Part shown: one piece after another, positions 54,640 through 63,766 of the stretch
How the letters are laid out: every line of letters starts with the position of its first letter
Position numbering within the stretch: the stretch's first letter is position 1
Assembly (NCBI GenBank): GCA_005790545.1
Contig: SXUL01000036.1
Coordinates: 6,534 to 70,533 of the forward strand
Origin: Planctomycetia bacterium
GTDB taxonomy: Bacteria; Planctomycetota; GCA-002687715
Direction: 5' to 3'
Length of the DNA: 64,000 bases
Made by a program: the position numbers and the translations under genes
Notes under the pieces: generated by a model
Told to the model about the DNA's origin: nothing
The model's input: the letters and a program-made list of their open reading frames with translations, nothing else
The model's database searches: none

Positions 54640-57600
54640 TCACGCGTCCGCCGGAGCACTCTCTGCAGGTGCCTCTCCCGCGGTTGCCGGTGCATCGTCC
54701 GCCTTGCCGGCCCGCACACGTCGTGCGGCGCGCGGCGCTTCCAAGGGCGGGACCTGCGGCAGCGCGCTGTCCTCGCGCAGGCGACCTTCGGCATCCACCT
54801 GCTCGATGCGCACCGTCACGCGACGTGACACGCCGCGCTCCGGCATGGTCACACCGAAAAGGCGGTCCGCGTGTTCCATGGTGCGCTTCGAGTGGGTCAC
54901 CACCACGAACTGGCTCTTCAGCCTCCACTCGGAAACAAGACGCACAAAGCGCTCAGTGTTCTCCTCGTCGAGAGCTGCGTCCACCTCGTCGAGGAAGGCG
55001 CACGGCGCGGGGTGCGCGCGGAAGATGGCGAAGAGAAGCGCCACCGCCGTCAGCGAGCGCTCGCCACCGGAGAGCAACGTGATGCTCTGCAACTCCTTGC
55101 CCGGCGGCTGGGCCTTGATTTCGATGCCGCACTCGAGAGGCAACTCCGGGTTCTCAAGGCTGATCTCGGCGCGCCCGCCGCCAAAGAGGCGGCGATAGAC
55201 CACGCTGAAGTGCTCGCGCACGGCGTTGAACGTGTCGAGGAAGAGCTGGGTGCTCTGTTCCTCGATGGACTTGGCCACCTTCTGAAGCTGTTCTTTCGCC
55301 TTCAAGAGGTCGTCGCGCTCGCCGAGGATGAAGGAGCTGCGCTGTTCTGCGGCTTCCAGTTCTTCCACGGCCGCGAGATTGACGTTGCCCAAGCGAAGAA
55401 TGCGCTCCTTCAGGTCCTTCACCGCCTCCTCGATGGAGAGAGCCGGTGCATCCTCCACCGTTTCCGGATCGACACTGACCGGTTCCGCGGCCGCGCGCTC
55501 GAAGGCTTCGAGCTCCATGCCCAGGTCGTCGCGCACATGCGTCTTCAGCGCCTGCACGGCCGCATCATTGCCGGCCTCCGCTGCGCGAGCCTCCGCGATG
55601 CGCTCGAGGGTTGCGGCCAGAGCCGCGTCGGCACCTTCCAGTGCTTCCGCGGCCGCGCGCATGCGCTCGCGCACAACATCGGCACCGTTCTCGACCATCT
55701 GCAGCCGACGGGCTGCTTCGATGATGTTGGTCTCGCACTCGACCAACTGGGCCGCATCGCGCTCGAGGGCGCCTTCCGCCTCGGCAATGGCCGTGACCAG
55801 GCGTGCCTCCTCGTCCTGCGCAGAGGCACTGCGCTGCTCGGCATCGCGGATGCCCGCGCCGAGGAAGACCACGCGCGCCCGCGCTGCATCGAGTTTCTCG
55901 TGCAACTTCGCATCCGCCAGCCGCACTTCGTGCTGACGCTGCTGCAGGCGATCGGCATCGTGCTGCAAGGAGAGCTGACGTTGGCGCGCCTCTTCGACCG
56001 TGCTCTCGCGCTGAATGCGTTGTTCCTTCAACAGCGCCGAACGGCTGCGAGCCTCTTCCAGTTGATCCGTCGCGACCTCGAGACGTTCGCGTCCCGCCGA
56101 AAGCTCGCGCAAGAGCAGCGTGCGCTCACCGTTCAGGCGCTCCATTTCGTTCACGAGCCGGACGGCCTGCTGGTCGAGACGCGCGGCCTCGCCTTCAGCC
56201 TTCACGAGCAGGACGGAGAGTTCCTTGACGCGCGCCCGGGCTTCGTCCCGCGCAGCGATGAGCGTGGTGAGCTGACGACGCGCTGTGTCGCGCTCCTCGG
56301 CGAGTCCGGTGAGCCGACGCTCCAAGCGACGCGCCTCAGCTTGCAGGGTGACAAGGCCCTGCGCCGCCGGGCCGCCGCGCGGCGTCGCGAGCATGCGTCC
56401 CGAGCGCAAGACATCACCGTCCGCGCTCACGAGCATGGCCGGAACGCTGCGGTCCTCTGCCAAGGCCGCTTCAAAATCCTCGCGCCCGAGGACGCGCACG
56501 CCCTCGAGAAGCTGGCCGAGCACTCGCCCGATGTCCGCCGTGGTGGCGCGAACTCCAGCCGGCAATGCATGCCCGGCTTCCTTGAAGCGATCGAGCGGCA
56601 GGAACACGGCGCCACCGAGATGCTTCTCTCTCAAGAAGCGCAGGCCTTCGATGGCCTCGCGGCCATCGGCCACCACCAGTGCCTGCGCGGCATCGCCGAG
56701 TGCCGCCTCGACACCACGTGCCTCGGCAAAATCCACTTCGAACAGATGCAGGAGCAGGCCTCTGAATCCGGGCATGAATTCCGGACGGCGCGCCTTCTCG
56801 GCCATGATGGCGAGCGTGCCCTCATTCAGCCCTTCGCCACGGCGCAGCGTGCTGGTCAGCACGTCCTTCCTTGCCTGGGCGCGGTGCTGCTCGGCCTCCG
56901 TGCGCCGCAGTACTTCCTCTGCGTCGTTCACGGCCCCTTCGCAGCGCTCGACCTCGAGTTCCGCCGCGGTGAGGGCATTGCGACTGCCCTCAAGAGCCGT
57001 GGTGCGTTCGCCTTGCGTGCCTGCGAGCCCGGTGAGTTCCGCCTTGAGGCGCGCGAGCGCGGCGTCCGAGCGCTGCAGACGTTCTTCGCCAGTGGCCAGC
57101 GCGGCGCGGCCGTGCGCGAGGGCGGTTTCGCAGCGTGCCTCCTGCGTGCTCGAGGCGGCAATTTCGCGCTCATGCAGCGCGAGTGCTGATTCGGCTGCCG
57201 TGCGCGCGTCTGTGGCCGTGGCCACTTCCGTCCGCGCTTCACGGACGAGACCGGTCGCCTCCGCGAGTTCCCGCGCGGTGCCTTGCACATCCCTGGCAAG
57301 AGCCTCGCTCTCGCGGCGGACGAGTGTTTCCTCCTCCGCCAGTTCCGAAGCCGAACGCCGGGCGTCTTCCGCCTCGGTCTTGCGGTTCTCGAGCCGCCGC
57401 GCTCCCTCTTCAACGTAGCGCCGTTGAAGGGCAATGGTTTCCTTCAGGCTGCCGAGACGCGCTGCGAGCTCGGCGTGCTGGGAGCGAGCTCCGGCGACAT
57501 GGTCGACAGTGGCCGTGAGCTCGGTTTCGATACCCGTCGCGCGGGCCTTGGCCTCATCACGTCCGGTGCGCAATCCGTCCCGTTCCGCAAAGAGCCCGGC

Positions 57601-58347
57601 CATGCGCACCGCGAGTTCCGATTGACCGGCCGAGAGGACCCTCCACCGCTCGAACGCCGCGCGATTCTGCAGCCCTTGGAGTTTCTGGCTGAGTTCCCGG
57701 TGGCTCCGCGCCTTGCCGGCTTGCAACTTGAGGGAGCGGATCTGGCGCGAGATCTCCTCCACCACGTCCGCGAGGCGCGAGAGATTCTCGTCCACCTTCT
57801 GGAGCTTCAATTCCGTCTCGTGGCGCCGCGCGCGCAGCCGCGAGATGCCTGCGGCTTCCTCGAAAACGCGCCGCCGGTCGACGGCATTGTTGGCGAGGAC
57901 CGCATCGATCTTGCCCTGCTCCATGAAGGCATAGCCACCCGATCCGAGCCCGGTGCCGGCGAGAAGATCGCGCACGTCCTTCAAGCGCGACGGGCGACCG
58001 TTGATCAGGTACTCGGTCTCGCCGGTCCGGAAGACGCGCCGGGTGATGTTCACCTCGTCGGCATCCTCGGGCAGTACGCGATCCTCGTTCGCGAAGAGCA
58101 GCGTGCCTTCGCACAGCCCCATGGGCGCGCGGCGCACGGTGCCATTGAAGATGACATCCATCATCTCGCGGCCACGGAGCGATGTGGGACGCTGCTCGCC
58201 GAGGACCCACTTCACTGCATCGATGACATTCGATTTGCCGCAGCCGTTCGGCCCGACGATGCAGGTGAGTGCGCCGCCCTCGAACGTGAACTCCGTACGG
58301 TCGGCGAACGACTTGAACCCGTGCACGATCAACCGCTGCAAGCGCAT
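54640..58347 (-). CDS. smc: Chromosome segregation protein SMC
   Basis: GFKSFAD, GPNGCGKSN, SLRG..MMDVIF, EEAAGIS, hinge region, LGNVN, LSGGERSL, LDEVDAALDE, VVTH. Start trimmed to MRLQRL. Confidence 0.96.
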   Translation of the reverse strand: MRLQRLIVHGFKSFADRTEFTFEGGALTCIVGPNGCGKSNVIDAVKWVLGEQRPTSLRGREMMDVIFNGTVRRAPMGLCEGTLLFANEDRVLPEDADEVNITRRVFRTGETEYLINGRPSRLKDVRDLLAGTGLGSGGYAFMEQGKIDAVLANNAVDRRRVFEEAAGISRLRARRHETELKLQKVDENLSRLADVVEEISRQIRSLKLQAGKARSHRELSQKLQGLQNRAAFERWRVLSAGQSELAVRMAGLFAERDGLRTGRDEAKARATGIETELTATVDHVAGARSQHAELAARLGSLKETIALQRRYVEEGARRLENRKTEAEDARRSASELAEEETLVRRESEALARDVQGTARELAEATGLVREARTEVATATDARTAAESALALHEREIAASSTQEARCETALAHGRAALATGEERLQRSDAALARLKAELTGLAGTQGERTTALEGSRNALTAAELEVERCEGAVNDAEEVLRRTEAEQHRAQARKDVLTSTLRRGEGLNEGTLAIMAEKARRPEFMPGFRGLLLHLFEVDFAEARGVEAALGDAAQALVVADGREAIEGLRFLREKHLGGAVFLPLDRFKEAGHALPAGVRATTADIGRVLGQLLEGVRVLGREDFEAALAEDRSVPAMLVSADGDVLRSGRMLATPRGGPAAQGLVTLQAEARRLERRLTGLAEERDTARRQLTTLIAARDEARARVKELSVLLVKAEGEAARLDQQAVRLVNEMERLNGERTLLLRELSAGRERLEVATDQLEEARSRSALLKEQRIQRESTVEEARQRQLSLQHDADRLQQRQHEVRLADAKLHEKLDAARARVVFLGAGIRDAEQRSASAQDEEARLVTAIAEAEGALERDAAQLVECETNIIEAARRLQMVENGADVVRERMRAAAEALEGADAALAATLERIAEARAAEAGNDAAVQALKTHVRDDLGMELEAFERAAAEPVSVDPETVEDAPALSIEEAVKDLKERILRLGNVNLAAVEELEAAEQRSSFILGERDDLLKAKEQLQKVAKSIEEQSTQLFLDTFNAVREHFSVVYRRLFGGGRAEISLENPELPLECGIEIKAQPPGKELQSITLLSGGERSLTAVALLFAIFRAHPAPCAFLDEVDAALDEENTERFVRLVSEWRLKSQFVVVTHSKRTMEHADRLFGVTMPERGVSRRVTVRIEQVDAEGRLREDSALPQVPPLEAPRAARRVRAGKADDAPATAGEAPAESAPADA

Positions 58348-58435: not shown

Positions 58436-60163
58436 CTATCGGGGAGATGGTGCCTGGAAGAGGTCGCCTTGAACCTCTTCGGCCAGCGCATCCGGGGCCG
58501 CAAAACGCACCCAGCGCAACGCCGTTTTCGTCACCAAACCGTCGAGAACCGCTGAGGCGCCGCGCTCCGAAGTGAGCGCGAGTGGCAGAGGCACGACGCC
58601 ACCCAACGACGCGGTCAGTTCTCTGGACAAGAGGCCCCGGTGAATCGGCGCATCCAGCGGCCAGCCAAGAGGAAGCACGGTGTCCGCGCTCCGCCCCGGA
58701 GCCCCCGCGGTGGAGGCGGCCGCCAGCGTGACCTCGCTCGGGCGACCAGACGCGGCTGGATCCACATCGAGCAGACACGCGACCAAGCGTGCCGCCAGGC
58801 GCGGTCGCTCCTGAGCACGCGAGGCTCCTCTGTGCACCAGCAGGTCGAGTGCCTCGCCGAGGTGCAATAATCTCACCTCTGTACGTTCGACGAGTTCCCG
58901 GGAGGGCAGCCCGAGCTCTTCGAGGACGGCGGCAAGGAACGTGCCCTGTTGGACGCGGCCGCGCTCGGCCTCGATCTCGCGGACGAGCGAACGTGCCCGC
59001 ACCATGGCCACGTCGGCCGCATCGAGGCTCTGCACGGACTGAAACAACTGCAGAAGATCGATGCCTGCTTCGACCAACCCGATGGAGATGGGCTCGGGCC
59101 GGTCGCGCAACAGAAAGGCCGCACCCAGCGACGCCTGCTCCAGCAGCAGCGGTTCTGGAGTTGCAGCGTCAAAACGCCAGAGCACATCCACGCCGAGATC
59201 CCGTCGCCAGTGACGTGTGCTCTCCACCAGCGCCGCCTCGAGAGGCAGATCCACGGCTACGCGCGCGCTGCAACCGGCACGGCGAGCTTGACGCACGGTA
59301 TCGATCAGCACCTCGAGAAGGGCTTCTCCGGCGACGCGCTGTGCGTGTGCCACTCCGGTGAAACACAGCGTGCCGCGCACGAGCGGGAGCAGTCGGGAGA
59401 TCCAGGCCGCGAACGTCGCGGGTGTGGAAGGAACGACACCCAGCACCAAGGACGAGGCGCGCAACGGATCGCCGAGCCCGGGCAGCGTGATGTCCCCGGA
59501 CGCGGCTGCCGCCGCCACAGCGCCCGCGTGTACTTCGAGCAGCAGCAGCTTCTCGAACGCGGCCGCCGCCACCATTCTGTCGCCAAGCTGCGGATCGCCA
59601 CCAGCACTGCCAAGGCGCGCACCCAACGTGCGCGGCGAGAGCGCCACACTCACCGCTGCTCGAGCCGCGCTTCCGTCGAGGGCAATCAACGCGCTGGCCG
59701 CGAGTTCCGCAAGCAAACCGCTGGACACGAGTTCGACGCGCAACGCCGCCAACTGGCGCTCGACGCGCAGTGCGATCTCTCCGGCGATGACATCCGGCAG
59801 GCCCGCGTTGCGCACCAAGGAGAGCACGAAGCGCTCATGCGCAAATGGCCCACGGCCATCCACGCCCTGCACTTCGAGATGTCCGAGGAGCGCGGCGCGC
59901 TCGCGACGCTCGTGCACGAGATGGCGTGCGGCCGCCTCATGCCCGGTGGATTCGAGCACATTCGCCAACAGGTCCTCGTACTCAGGCTCCGAGAGATCCC
60001 GCAGCGGCCCCTTCTGCACCAGTTCCATCACGGCATCGGCAAGCACACGCGCCAGCGCAGGAGGCGCCTCCGTGGATGCGATGAGCGCGTCGGCGAGCTC
60101 CGCCTCGACCTCACCATGCAGCAGCGGCGCCGTGGAACCGTCAGCTCTGCGCACCCGCCGCAT
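58436..60163 (-). CDS. Hypothetical protein with two degenerate ATP-cone domains and a degenerate class III RNR (NrdD)-like body
   Basis: [10 protein letters not shown]... and [16 protein letters not shown]...[12 protein letters not shown]...VSSGLLAEL resemble ATP cones; [15 protein letters not shown] aligns by eye with NrdD aH..GDIHxHDL; no catalytic Cys, Zn site or glycyl-radical motif. Overlaps nrdR by 23 nt. Confidence 0.6.
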
Positions 60164-60626
60164 CGCCGCCCTCCTTCCCCGACAAGACCCGCTTCAGTTC
60201 CGCCATGAATGCATTCACGTCCTTGAATTCGCGGTACACCGAGGCGAAGCGCACGTAGGCCACCTGATCGAGCGAGCGCAATTCTTCCATGACGAAATCG
60301 CCGATGATGCGGCTCGACACTTCGGAATCAAAAGTCTCGCTGACCTTCGTCTCGACGCGGCTGGTCACTTCTTCGAGCGTCTCCGTACTGACCGGACGCT
60401 TGTGACAGGCGAGCATGAGCCCTGAGAGAATCTTCTGGCGATCGAACGGGACCCTGCTGCCGTCCTTCTTGACCACACGCAGCGGCATCTCCTCGATGCG
60501 CTCGTAGGTCGTGAAGCGCCGCGTGCAATCGAGGCATTCGCGGCGCCGGCGGATCACACCTTGGTCGTTGCAGGCCCTGGAGTCGATGACCTTGTCTTCG
60601 ATGGCCTTGCAAAACGGGCAGCGCAT
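60141..60626 (-). CDS. nrdR: Transcriptional repressor NrdR
   Basis: MRCPFC, KVIDSR, IRRRREC..C..RFTTYE, VVKKDG ATP cone, [10 protein letters not shown]. Confidence 0.97.
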
Positions 60627-60670
60627 GGCGGTGCTCATATCACCACGCCGCGAAGACCGTCAAGGACGGA

Positions 60671-61963
60671 TCATTTGCCGATGCAGAACTGGCTGAAGAT
60701 GCGATCGAGCAGTCGCGCCGGCGCATCACTGCCGGTGACGGCGGAGATCTCTCGCAATGCCTCATGGAGATCCGCCGCCGCGAGCTCGCGCTCGCCCGCT
60801 GCGCCAAGGAGCGTCCGCGCGCGCGCGACCGCCATGGCGGCCAAACGGCAATGCTCAGCCTGACGTACCGAGGCCACAGAACCGGAGACGTGCGGAACGA
60901 GCCGCTGGAACATGGCCAGGCGCAGCTGCGGAATTCCTTTGCCCGTCAACCCGCTGACGGCCAGCACGCCGGCGGGACAGGCACCCAGATCCGCGTGCGT
61001 GAGGACCGGGAGACTCCGCGCAGCGGGACGCGCTGCCGGCTGGCCCGGAGCGCGCACCTCGAGGAGGAGATCCGCGGCTGCAAGCCACGCCGCGCGACGC
61101 GCCTGTGCCTCAACATCGGCTGCGGCGGGGACAACGTCTGACCCTGCGGTGTCCACCAACCGCACCAGCATTTCGTCCAACTCGCACTGCCCCTCCACCG
61201 CATCACGTGTCGTGCCAGCAAAGGGGCTCGCCAGCGCGCGCTCGGATCCAGAGAGCGCATTGAACAGCGTCGACTTGCCCGCGTTCGCCGGCCCGCTCAA
61301 GACCACCAGCGGCACCCCGCTGCTTGCACACGGGCCAGCAGTGTCAGCCGCCAGTTGCGAGAGCAGCCCGGCAGTGCGCGCAAGCGATGCGGAAGCATCC
61401 ACTGGCAGCGGAATCTCGACATCGTCATCCTGAAAGTCGAACCCCAGTTCGAGCGGAATCAAGACCGCCTGGATGGCCGAAGTGCAACTCGCGAGCCGAC
61501 GGGCGAGGCCACCTTCAAGGACAAAGACGGCGCGCTGCCGCTCCGCCTCGGACTCGGCGGCCACCAGCGAACCAACCGCTTCTGCCCGCGCAAGGTCGAG
61601 TTTGCCGTGTTCGAGAGCACGGCGCGTGAATTCTCCCGCGGATGCATCCACGATGCCCTCGGCCAGCAGCGTTTCGCGGAGCAGGGCCGCGAGCAGCGGC
61701 GCTCCCGGGAAATGCACTTCGAGGCAGTCCTCGCCGGTTGCGCTGCGAGGCGCCTTTCTCCACCAGAGCGCAGCCGGCACCTCGAGCACGCCGAGCCGGA
61801 GAGAGAGTGCTTGAACGGCGGAAGGCGTGTCGAACACGGCTCTGCTCGCTGGCTGGAGTTTCTCCAGGACGGGCCGCGCGAGCGGCCCGGAAATCCGCAG
61901 CACCTGTCGCGCTGCAGGGACACGCGCGCAGGCCATCGCCATGATGGTGCGCGCGTCGGCCAT
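60671..61963 (-). CDS. mnmE: tRNA modification GTPase MnmE (degenerate G domain)
   Basis: LRISG, SATGEDCLE, GEFTRRALEHGKLDL, GPANAGKS, GTTRD, DTAG, terminal FSQFCIGK; canonical position after yidC. Confidence 0.9.
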   Translation of the reverse strand: MADARTIMAMACARVPAARQVLRISGPLARPVLEKLQPASRAVFDTPSAVQALSLRLGVLEVPAALWWRKAPRSATGEDCLEVHFPGAPLLAALLRETLLAEGIVDASAGEFTRRALEHGKLDLARAEAVGSLVAAESEAERQRAVFVLEGGLARRLASCTSAIQAVLIPLELGFDFQDDDVEIPLPVDASASLARTAGLLSQLAADTAGPCASSGVPLVVLSGPANAGKSTLFNALSGSERALASPFAGTTRDAVEGQCELDEMLVRLVDTAGSDVVPAAADVEAQARRAAWLAAADLLLEVRAPGQPAARPAARSLPVLTHADLGACPAGVLAVSGLTGKGIPQLRLAMFQRLVPHVSGSVASVRQAEHCRLAAMAVARARTLLGAAGERELAAADLHEALREISAVTGSDAPARLLDRIFSQFCIGK

Positions 61964-61966
61964 GCT

Positions 61967-63766
61967 TCAGCTCTGCCGTGCGCGCAGCGAACGGATGATG
62001 CGCCCTTCCACGATGCCGATGCTGCTGCTCACCAGCCAGTAGAGAGAGAGTCCCGCCGCGTAGCTGTACATCATGAACCCGAAGAGAACGGGCATGAACA
62101 ACATCATCTTGCGCTGCTGCTCCATCTGCGGGTCGCTGGTGGCCGGCTTCGGCATGAGCCACGAGTTCAGGAACCACGCGACAGTCATGAGGATCGGCAA
62201 GAGGTGCAGCCCGGTCAGCGCAGGAGCGCCACCGACGCAGGAGCTGCAGCCCGGGATGAATCCGCACAGAGACATCGGATTCGCCATGGGGCTCGCGAAA
62301 GTGATGAGATGGTCGGGTTGCGACAGGTCCGCCACCCACCACCAGCCGGCCTGCCGGAGGTCAATGGATGCGCGCAGCGCAGAGAAGAGACCGAAGAAGA
62401 TCGGGATCTGCAGCAGCATCGGCAAGCACCCGCCGAGTGGCACGAGCTTCACCTTCTCCTCGCGCATCATCTTCATCTGCTCTTCAGCGAATTTGCGCGA
62501 GTCACCCTCGTGCTTCTTCTTGAGCGCTTCGAGCTTCGGCTTCAATTTCGCCATCTGCTCCTGGTGCTTCGCCATCGCGTCCTGACTGCGACGATTCACC
62601 GGGAAGAGCACGCAGCGCACGAGCAATGTCATCAGGATGATGGCGATGCCCCAGTTGCCGCACAGGCCGTGCATCAAGTCGAGCAGGAACAGCACCGCGC
62701 GGCCGATGACCCGGGCCCAACCAAGTTGGTCGCGATAGATGAGCGCGAGCGCCTCGGCAGCCGCCGGTTTGTCGGCCAGGTCCGCCGCAACGATGCGGTC
62801 GTCCACCGGCCCCATGTAAATCAGCCCCGAGTGGGTGACAGGCGCAGCACCGGCTTCGGCACGCATGCCGAACTCGATGCAGGTGGCGGTACGCACCTGA
62901 TCCGTTGCCCCATCATCCTTGCGGTCCTGCGCGGCCACTTCCTCGACGCGCGCCACGACGGAGTCGGGGAACGACTCGAGCAAAAGCAGCATGCCGAAGT
63001 AGTTCGAGAAATCACCGGCGAAGCGCTGTGCGCCGGCGAGCGCAAGGGACTTTCCGGCCGACTCTTCGTGCACCTCGGGAGCCATGACGGCGCGGTATTC
63101 ACGCTCCACGCCGTTCAGGCCCGCATGAGCCGGTGTCGCGGCCGACGCGCCAGGTTCCTGAAAGACCCCGGGCGTCACCTGCAAGGCGAGATCGAGCGGA
63201 AAGACCGCATTCGCAGCCCCTTCGGCCCGCACACTGCAACGCAGTTCCGCATGCAAGCTGTGGCCCGCCGGAAGGCTGAGTTCCTTCTTGACGAACACAC
63301 GCCCGCCGGGCCGCTCCACGCTGCGCTCCATGACCAGCGTGCGGCCGTCCGCGGATTTCGCGAGCTGCCACATGTGCCCGCTGCCGAGATCATCGTTCTT
63401 GGTCGCCCGCAATTCGAGGGCTGCATGCTTGTCCCCCGACTGCGCATGCACCAGCAGCAGATCGCGCTCGCTGCCTACGCTTGGATGACGTCCCTTCAAC
63501 TCGACCCGCGTGAGCACGGCTCCGTCGTTGGAGACGACCAGACGCACGTCGTCGTTCTCGAGCACTTCCTCGCGGCGCTCGACCTCGGGCATGGCTGCAA
63601 CCCGCACGGCCGGTGCAACCGGCTGCGACGATTCGACCGGCTTCGGAGCTTCGCTCGCGGGCGGCGTCACCGGCTTCGGCGCGGGTGTCGGGCCCGGAAA
63701 GAGAAACTGCCATCCGAGCAGTACCGCGAGGGAAAGGACGAGTGCGAGGAGGAATCGCTTTTCCAT
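61967..63766 (-). CDS. yidC: Membrane protein insertase YidC
   Basis: N-terminal TM, periplasmic domain, YMGP, NWGIAIILMT, GGCLPMLLQIPIF, AGLSLYW. Confidence 0.96.
   Translation of the reverse strand: MEKRFLLALVLSLAVLLGWQFLFPGPTPAPKPVTPPASEAPKPVESSQPVAPAVRVAAMPEVERREEVLENDDVRLVVSNDGAVLTRVELKGRHPSVGSERDLLLVHAQSGDKHAALELRATKNDDLGSGHMWQLAKSADGRTLVMERSVERPGGRVFVKKELSLPAGHSLHAELRCSVRAEGAANAVFPLDLALQVTPGVFQEPGASAATPAHAGLNGVEREYRAVMAPEVHEESAGKSLALAGAQRFAGDFSNYFGMLLLLESFPDSVVARVEEVAAQDRKDDGATDQVRTATCIEFGMRAEAGAAPVTHSGLIYMGPVDDRIVAADLADKPAAAEALALIYRDQLGWARVIGRAVLFLLDLMHGLCGNWGIAIILMTLLVRCVLFPVNRRSQDAMAKHQEQMAKLKPKLEALKKKHEGDSRKFAEEQMKMMREEKVKLVPLGGCLPMLLQIPIFFGLFSALRASIDLRQAGWWWVADLSQPDHLITFASPMANPMSLCGFIPGCSSCVGGAPALTGLHLLPILMTVAWFLNSWLMPKPATSDPQMEQQRKMMLFMPVLFGFMMYSYAAGLSLYWLVSSSIGIVEGRIIRSLRARQS

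Follow-up and report, generated by a model that had tools for sequence, protein, structure and literature searches.

A probable non-catalytic descendant of the class III ribonucleotide reductase NrdD, conserved beside nrdR throughout a planctomycete order

Introduction

Ribonucleotide reductases (RNRs) are among the most studied enzymes. The described system closest to the gene reported here is the class III reductase NrdD of planctomycetes, which carries two ATP cones (loci L017-L020; solved relatives 8p27, 9d3x, 4con and 1h78). We analysed a 64,000-nt stretch of DNA from a Planctomycetia bacterium (GenBank assembly GCA_005790545.1, contig SXUL01000036.1, positions 6,534 to 70,533), hereafter the window. 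On its minus strand, a 575-aa open reading frame (ORF; 58436..60163, stop codon included) overlaps the gene of the repressor NrdR. ORF reading and homologue searches point to a non-catalytic homologue of NrdD, and we call the product dead NrdD, meaning a descendant of NrdD that is very probably non-catalytic and yet functional. An earlier sequence-only reading of the window had described it as an RNR-derived pseudoenzyme.

The inactive R1 homologues of betaherpesviruses, UL45 of human cytomegalovirus (HCMV) and M45 of murine cytomegalovirus (MCMV), are viral proteins of class I R1 origin that target signalling proteins of the host. They keep the RNR large-subunit fold for a non-enzymatic use, as described in the available text of PMC5469499. 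Searches of the full-text literature, supplements aside, turned up no account of a bacterial homologue of NrdD or another RNR that lacks catalysis; the inactive homologues that surfaced were herpesviral only. The accessible parts of two papers on RNR phylogeny (PMC9531940 and PMC9669993) mention no such bacterial protein.

Results

The homology between dead NrdD and NrdD becomes visible only through intermediate profiles. Four profiles were compared: A3 from the clade of the window's genus (5 sequences), A5 from an order clade of proteins of about 670 aa (15 sequences), A4 from ten relatives that are positive for the Pfam family NRDD, and A2, in which sequences were pooled. With hhalign, A3 matched A5 at an E-value of 1.6e-48 over 567 columns and A5 matched A4 at 4e-66 over 642 columns; the direct match of A3 to A4, at 2.5e-25, was limited to residues 1-240. 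The pooled profile also matched solved NrdDs (9d3x at 2.8e-30 and 8p23 at 1.3e-26). A sequence search of the PDB with a three-sequence profile returned a chance match only (7vbg at E 1), the NRDD family PF13597 matched neither dead NrdD at E <= 1 nor anything in the whole genome at E <= 10, and no NCBIfam family matched dead NrdD.

An AlphaFold2 (AF2) model of dead NrdD built on A2 reached a mean predicted local distance difference test score (pLDDT) of 87.1 and a predicted template modelling score (pTM) of 0.73. The model contains the ten-stranded alpha/beta barrel fold of RNRs, in degenerate form, at about residues 183-556 (58496..59617, minus strand). All top Foldseek matches of the model were RNRs, the best being the two-cone class I NrdA of Pseudomonas aeruginosa (5im3, E 2.9e-11), with NrdDs following at about 1e-10. 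The hhalign and Foldseek comparisons with NrdD and the ATP-cone show an RNR barrel and two cone-shaped modules. Together with the alignments and the selection estimates given below, they bear out the idea of an RNR-derived pseudoenzyme and narrow it, in that the origin lies specifically in NrdD, with the catalytic apparatus lost and the gene under purifying selection.

As anchors for the catalytic site, we used four true NrdDs of the same phylum (L015 and L017-L019), aligned with A3, A4 and A5. The motifs of a true NrdD are DAHxxxIHxHDL, the beta-A cysteine (YCSSH), the CCR finger loop, NLPQ, YYTNS, the zinc site and the glycine loop; CCR is found in all four anchors, and L017-L019 add two CxxC pairs and RIVGY. 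Residues 217-230 of dead NrdD (59474..59515, minus strand) align under DAHxxxIHxHDL of the true NrdDs, so that the remnant of the H..GDIH.HDL region noticed earlier is real. HxHD has become TLPG in this remnant of AHxxGxIHxHDL, giving I-T-L-P-G-L where true NrdDs have I-H-x-H-D-L. According to the accessible text of PMC11226230, HxHD holds the substrate triphosphate in the NrdD of Prevotella copri. The remnant of the finger loop and the strand that follows it (residues 349-370; 59054..59119, minus strand), placed by alignment and hhalign, contains no cysteine and has DLL for NLP, with IDLL at the NLP position.

No cysteine occupies either catalytic position of dead NrdD. The catalytic cysteine columns hold no cysteine in any of the 5 genus (A3) or 15 order (A5) sequences and are filled in all four true NrdDs. 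The protein has three cysteines in total, none of them conserved across the clade, and a search of it for CxxC and R..G[YFW] found neither, in agreement with the earlier count of three cysteines and the reported lack of zinc-binding CxxC pairs and of an RxxGY loop. Its alignment with NrdD stops before the zinc site, and a short tail stands instead of the glycyl-radical domain. On the evidence of these alignments, dead NrdD is devoid of all radical chemistry: the thiyl and beta-A cysteines, HxHD, the zinc site and the glycyl-radical domain have all been lost.

The activase gene nrdG had been reported as missing from the neighbourhood, and nothing reaches the NrdG cut-offs genome-wide: TIGR02491 gave no match and TIGR02495 a best score of 30.6 bits against a cut-off of 131, in a genome that is 91% complete, so that the absence of NrdG is unproven. 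Among the ten A4 relatives, none has a CxxC or glycine motif and nine have no cysteine in the finger-loop stretch; P0026 has a CC pair, but it is not aligned under CCR.

Several lines of evidence indicate that dead NrdD is a real gene under purifying selection. The GC contents at the three codon positions of the ORF (0.79/0.51/0.75) resemble those of the adjacent mnmE. Homologues share 82%, 59% and about 40% identity with it, the first two having come from a word-indexed search. When HMMER was run exhaustively against 1.84 billion representatives, 75 matches had E <= 1e-3, and for 2 of these the E-value was below 1e-30. Using a profile of the order clade (A7, 22 sequences), we found one intact copy in each of 23 order genomes, which span 13 genera and 4 families. 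The copies share about 25% pairwise identity across the 4 families and contain no internal stops; the gene is divided across contig ends in four assemblies. The same frame is thus kept at every one of these distances, as the earlier description of an intact frame implied.

Between two genus mates, the proportions of nonsynonymous and synonymous differences (pN and pS, Nei-Gojobori) were 0.24 and 0.68, which corresponds to an omega of about 0.16, compared with 0.12 for mnmE and 0.09 for nrdR; these omega values are rough because synonymous divergence (dS) is saturated (1.8). Neutral decay was not seen, either in this comparison or in the 23 intact copies. The protein measures 575-590 aa in the window's genus, against an order norm of about 670 aa; genomes of this genus are small, at 2.6-2.9 Mb.

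The gene upstream, nrdR (60141..60638, minus strand), encodes a repressor with a Zn-ribbon and an ATP-cone (TIGR00244 at 1.1e-56; PF22811, PF03477). Its last 23 nt (60141-60163) overlap the start of the dead NrdD gene, confirming that the 575-aa ORF begins 23 nt inside nrdR. The ATG of dead NrdD lies at 60163, and a strong Shine-Dalgarno sequence, AAGGAGG (60170..60176, minus strand), read from the sequence within the 3' end of nrdR, stands 6 nt ahead of it. In each of the 21 order loci that include the 5' end of the dead NrdD gene, the gene directly upstream is nrdR. The true double-cone nrdD of the phylum has the same neighbour, as nrdR lies directly upstream in 13 of 15 true-nrdD loci, the exceptions, L015 and L016, belonging to another NrdD subtype. 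Given this shared neighbour, the dead NrdD gene is best regarded as the positional orthologue of nrdD. The positional orthology and the C-terminal tail described below both go beyond the earlier reading. In L016 (G056:C42:1448-3332), from another planctomycete, the true nrdD (535 bits) is interrupted by one in-frame TAA, and a separate 64-aa frame covers the ~30 profile positions that remain; the gene could be broken, or the assembly could be in error here.

PF13597 is unmatched in all 23 order genomes (the window's own and 22 of the 61 relatives examined). When we extended the analysis to 301 genomes sampled across the phylum, 16 of which belong to the order, strong PF13597 matches (E <= 1e-60) occurred in 71, all from outside the order, and 218 genomes matched A7 at E <= 1e-5. 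We estimate that about 147 sampled genomes encode an A7-like protein and give no strong NRDD match, and some of these proteins may be other ATP-cone proteins; by these profile matches, NrdD-like proteins without a strong NRDD signature may occur in up to about half of the sampled Planctomycetota. Full-length A7 matches (positions 1-670) are confined to the order. In other families, nrdR is likewise the immediate upstream neighbour of dead NrdD-like genes (L010, L011, L083, L086 and L093). The simplest reading of these gene orders is that the nrdR-nrdD pair is ancestral and that the enzyme decayed in place, the order's version being one such lineage; such decay probably happened more than once.

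The wider planctomycete set comprises proteins of 630-760 aa that pass the Pfam NRDD model and keep AHxxGxIHxHxL and NLPR, and that have no catalytic cysteine, zinc site, glycyl-radical domain or QxxLF tail (P0021, P0023, P0026, P0028, P0030, P0033, P0045, P0069, P0072 and P0075, and the five loci just named). Those of its genes with known context sit after nrdR, and some before smc. Two further relatives, P0054 (699 aa) and P0009 (944 aa), have two C-terminal CxxC pairs, a zinc-ribbon remnant, and no RxxGY; the C-terminus of P0054, ...GQHFLFE, is another QxxLF-like end. The nearest Atlas clusters (127, 66 and 133 members, mostly Planctomycetota) are labelled 'hypothetical protein', with the ATP-cone in 87-92% and NRDD in 15-61% of their members. 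Archaeal Atlas clusters (Nitrososphaerota, Bathyarchaeota and Promethearchaeota) combine PF13597 NRDD, ATP-cone and DUF7347, and one of them is auto-named 'putative ArsR family transcriptional regulator'; to judge from these domain combinations, they may be another case of a NrdD-like body in regulation.

The tail that stands in place of the NrdD radical domain in the order clade ends in a candidate motif for binding the beta sliding clamp (DnaN), E563-V-Q-G-D-L-F569 (58457..58477, minus strand). The 22-sequence order alignment has eight invariant columns, three of which are E563, Q565 and F569; V564 and L568 are nearly invariant. The tail reads [FIL]-E-[VIF]-Q-x-x-L-F in 21 of the 23 order genomes and Q-E-E-M-F and Q-E-S-L-A-F in the other two, and outside the order the chains of relatives stop at the final strand of the barrel and do not carry the motif. 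Q565-G-D-L-F569 lies six residues from the C-terminus behind a poorly conserved linker, and residues 559-575 have a pLDDT below 50. An ending of the form Q..[LM]F within the last 12 residues is rare in this genome (2 of 2938 likely-coding frames of at least 150 aa), and the second such frame, on contig C38 and ending in Q..LF, appears non-coding. A genome search for E[VIFL]Q..LF gave 3 matches in 3439 likely-coding frames, none of them informative. The DinB of the same genome ends in QLPLPF. The clamp-binding consensus is Q-L-x-L-F and usually C-terminal, according to the available part of PMC4549789.

We predicted the complex of DnaN (15-row alignment) with residues 531-575 of dead NrdD (22-row alignment) in three runs with 3 controls. 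The score was 0.57 against 0.00 for the best control, which we grade as weak support; the runs agreed in at least 68% of contacts, with a partner pLDDT of at least 43. In calibration, 116 of 157 solved complexes reached the mark, as did 2 of 215 mismatched pairs; at 0.60 or under, only 18 of the 157 solved complexes did so, along with both passing mismatches. Because clamp-peptide complexes have already been solved, the pass may reflect likeness or memory rather than binding. Taking motif and model together, we consider that the tail possibly binds the clamp, with the chances a little short of even. A likeness of the acidic ...EELF end to the tail of single-stranded DNA-binding protein (SSB) was also considered. 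An SSB-type tail needs a free terminal carboxylate. In the window's genus six residues follow the Phe, so that a free carboxylate is not required here, and this reading was rejected.

The barrel is preceded by two ATP-cone-like modules, as the sequence-only reading had proposed; Pfam sees only the first, below its cut-off, and the AF2 model and the alignment show both. Module 1 (residues 1-95; 59879..60163, minus strand) is degenerate, with RADG for KRDG, and matches PF03477 over residues 3-86 at 21 bits (cut-off 25.8, E 5e-4). The corresponding scores are 26-27 bits in genus mates and 34-58 bits for the first cone of order relatives. Module 2 (residues 96-170; 59654..59878, minus strand) was not detected by the Pfam ATP-cone search and is defined by model topology and by alignment with the second cone of true planctomycete NrdDs; it also aligns with the second cone of relatives that have two Pfam cone stretches. 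The AF2 model repeats a hairpin-plus-helices arrangement twice (strands 3-5 and 11-13 with helices in 16-95, then strands in 97-106 with helices in 109-169), cone 1 consisting of a hairpin and 4 helices. Block-mean pLDDT is about 81-96 over residues 1-160 and 62 over 161-170, and whole-chain alignments of the model extend to the cones of 9d3x and 8p2c.

The KRDG of NrdDs appears as R-[D/E]-D-G in most order relatives and as R-A-D-G in the window's dead NrdD. The nucleotide contacts given for P. copri NrdD in the accessible text of PMC11226230 are Lys7, Arg8, Tyr83, Arg87 and Arg91. By alignment, these would map to R6, A7, E85, R89 and L93, two of five being kept in kind: Ala stands in for the second basic residue of KRDG, and of the three contacts on the C-terminal helix two are altered. 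Short stand-alone proteins of 183-213 aa (P0020, P0029, P0032, P0040-P0042, P0044, P0052, P0060, P0068 and P0070) match only residues ~3-160 of dead NrdD and consist of tandem cones without a barrel.

A survey of active RNRs in the genome found a sole barrel-domain match, the class II, B12-dependent NrdJ (PF02867 and PF08471) on contig C59, which has no ATP cone; the only ATP-cone match above cut-off is NrdR. We scanned the whole genome for pairs of NrdR boxes, defined by the six conserved positions C4, A6, A8, T9, T11 and G13 in each box and a spacing of 15-16 bp (the available text of PMC13584703). Two pairs matched at least 11 of 12 positions. One (11/12, 15-bp linker) lies at C59:1900-1940 (locus L013), just upstream of nrdJ, and is the only pair ahead of an RNR gene, which gives NrdR a plausible target; the other, on C103, has no RNR context. 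At this threshold, the scan found no box pair belonging to the dead NrdD gene itself. With this gene content, deoxynucleoside triphosphates (dNTPs) must come from the cone-less class II NrdJ, which the boxes suggest is under NrdR control.

The remaining neighbours form a single-strand string with nrdR and dead NrdD in the window, in the order yidC (61967-63766, minus strand), mnmE, nrdR, dead NrdD, smc, separated by 3, 32, -23 and 88 nt. The mnmE gene (60671..61963, minus strand; PF12631, PF10396, PF01926 and synteny) lies 32 nt upstream of nrdR, an adjacency kept in most loci of the order. The smc gene (54640..58347, minus strand; PF02463, PF06470) begins at 58347 with the conserved start MRLQRL, fixed by orthologue alignment, which confirms the 88-nt distance from the dead NrdD stop noted earlier. 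Such tight same-strand packing from yidC to smc suggests one long transcription unit of housekeeping genes.

A link of dead NrdD to SMC was set aside. Synteny across the order showed nrdR adjacency in every testable locus, with smc no more than 1.5 kb downstream in only 10 of the 23 genomes (8 of 8 in the window's own family, 2 of 5 in f3, 0 of 9 in f2 and 0 of 1 in f4); smc was also found downstream of dead NrdD copies in three other families. From this gene order, the case for an SMC link appears weak.

Discussion

We tentatively propose that the dead NrdD of this order, bereft of radical chemistry yet folded and selected, is docked on DnaN as a replisome-tethered regulator or scaffold, a combination to which we give slightly less than even credence. 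The radical domain would have been replaced by a flexible tail ending in E-V-Q-x-x-L-F, this tail would dock dead NrdD on the clamp, and dead NrdD would on that account act as a non-enzymatic, replisome-tethered regulatory or scaffolding subunit. The overlapping, Shine-Dalgarno-coupled junction would have it made in fixed proportion with NrdR, and the cones together with an effector-site remnant may bind adenine nucleotides or deoxynucleotides, cone 1 being visibly degraded in the genus. A more elaborate scheme, which we consider improbable, would couple dNTP supply to ongoing replication by having dead NrdD ride on DNA-loaded clamps and, with its cone modules, capture or release NrdR or read ATP/dATP, so that nrdJ is derepressed only while forks are active; it would be a planctomycete counterpart of clamp-dependent circuits such as Hda and the regulatory inactivation of DnaA (RIDA).

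Several observations weigh against the clamp-docked regulator. The clamp contact rests on a five-residue motif and a complex score that is weak and may be memorised; at its second position the motif has G or E where the consensus has L, and the invariant upstream Glu and Val are not accounted for by a generic clamp motif. Since tail-less dead NrdD-like proteins outside the order are still conserved, the core function cannot depend on the tail. Nucleotide sensing is doubtful because cone 1 scores below the cut-off and has Ala, Glu and Leu at the positions of Arg8, Tyr83 and Arg91, and we regard it, from these residues, as rather unlikely. The genus copy, some 90 residues below the order norm, could mean ongoing reduction.

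One rival account sees dead NrdD as a partner of NrdR with no role at the clamp; its cone modules would form mixed oligomers with the ATP-cone of NrdR, tuning the repressor or sequestering it, and its tail would serve another contact. This account, compatible with the clamp reading, is unlikely in our view. In its favour, NrdR itself senses nucleotide concentration through its ATP-cone by a nucleotide-sensing oligomerization mechanism (available text of PMC9110341), the two genes overlap, are Shine-Dalgarno-coupled and adjacent in 21/21 order loci, and tail-less dead NrdD-like genes elsewhere in the phylum also follow nrdR. However, the adjacency is no independent sign of partnership, because it is inherited from true nrdR-nrdD pairs, and cone 1 is degraded in the genus. 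The working reductase could be the partner instead, with dead NrdD as a trans-acting allosteric subunit that supplies NrdJ with overall-activity regulation or aids its folding or assembly. NrdJ has no ATP cone of its own, the only above-cut-off cone in the genome being that of NrdR. In yeast, Rnr4 is a catalytically dead paralogue that serves a live RNR subunit. Yet nrdJ (contig C59) and the dead NrdD gene (contig C127) are unlinked, and class III barrels dimerise through an interface different from that of classes I and II (accessible part of PMC9531940), so that we hold this option to be quite improbable.

Two accounts do without a partner. An enzyme with a new, non-radical nucleotide chemistry in the old barrel would explain why the barrel is kept and why L435, A438, L442, P498 and P502 are invariant in 22 sequences; but these residues are hydrophobic or proline and form no conserved polar or catalytic set, the HxHD motif for the substrate phosphates is lost and no cysteine is conserved, and we think this account very improbable. 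The least probable of all, in our judgement, is a decaying nrdD relic without function, open by chance or through the overlap with nrdR at its 5' end. The loss of all catalytic motifs fits a relic, as do the shortened copy and the further eroded cone 1 and NLP of a genus with 2.6-2.9 Mb genomes. Against this stand a frame intact in 23/23 genomes of 4 families at ~25% pairwise identity, a pN far below pS, a confidently predicted fold and an invariant tail at the end of the gene far from nrdR.

These findings indicate that what is very probably a dead class III subunit has been retained throughout a planctomycete order, where its gene is universal, single-copy and apparently coupled in translation to the adjoining or overlapping gene of the master repressor NrdR. 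If the clamp contact is real, it would connect the replisome physically with the regulation of bacterial dNTP synthesis in a way open to direct test, and if the half-of-phylum estimate holds, these proteins would form a large unrecognised family of RNR-derived regulators. Such proteins are annotated as 'hypothetical' or 'anaerobic ribonucleoside-triphosphate reductase domain-containing', and in metabolic reconstructions they should not be taken as evidence that these organisms make dNTPs anaerobically.

Compared with known systems, dead NrdD differs from class III NrdD in having no beta-A cysteine, CCR, HxHD, YYTNS, zinc CxxC pairs or RIVGY domain and no NrdG above the cut-offs; NLP is also missing in the window's species, the protein is about 240 residues shorter, and the QxxLF C-terminal tail is new. 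The class I NrdA of P. aeruginosa (5im3) has tandem cones ahead of an RNR barrel, as dead NrdD does. NrdR is likewise an ATP-cone protein of the RNR regulon and belongs to the same overlapping gene pair, but it combines a Zn-ribbon DNA-binding domain with one canonical cone (88 bits), whereas dead NrdD has no DNA-binding domain and joins two weak cones to a barrel. No RNR-family or ATP-cone protein was found as a clamp partner in the published literature searched. Established clamp partners such as Pol IV/DinB, transposases and Hda carry a near-C-terminal Q-x-x-L-F on a flexible tail, as dead NrdD does, although position 2 in dead NrdD is G or E in place of L and its binding is weakly predicted. 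Set beside UL45 and M45, dead NrdD is of class III descent, is encoded on a bacterial chromosome and is universal within its order.

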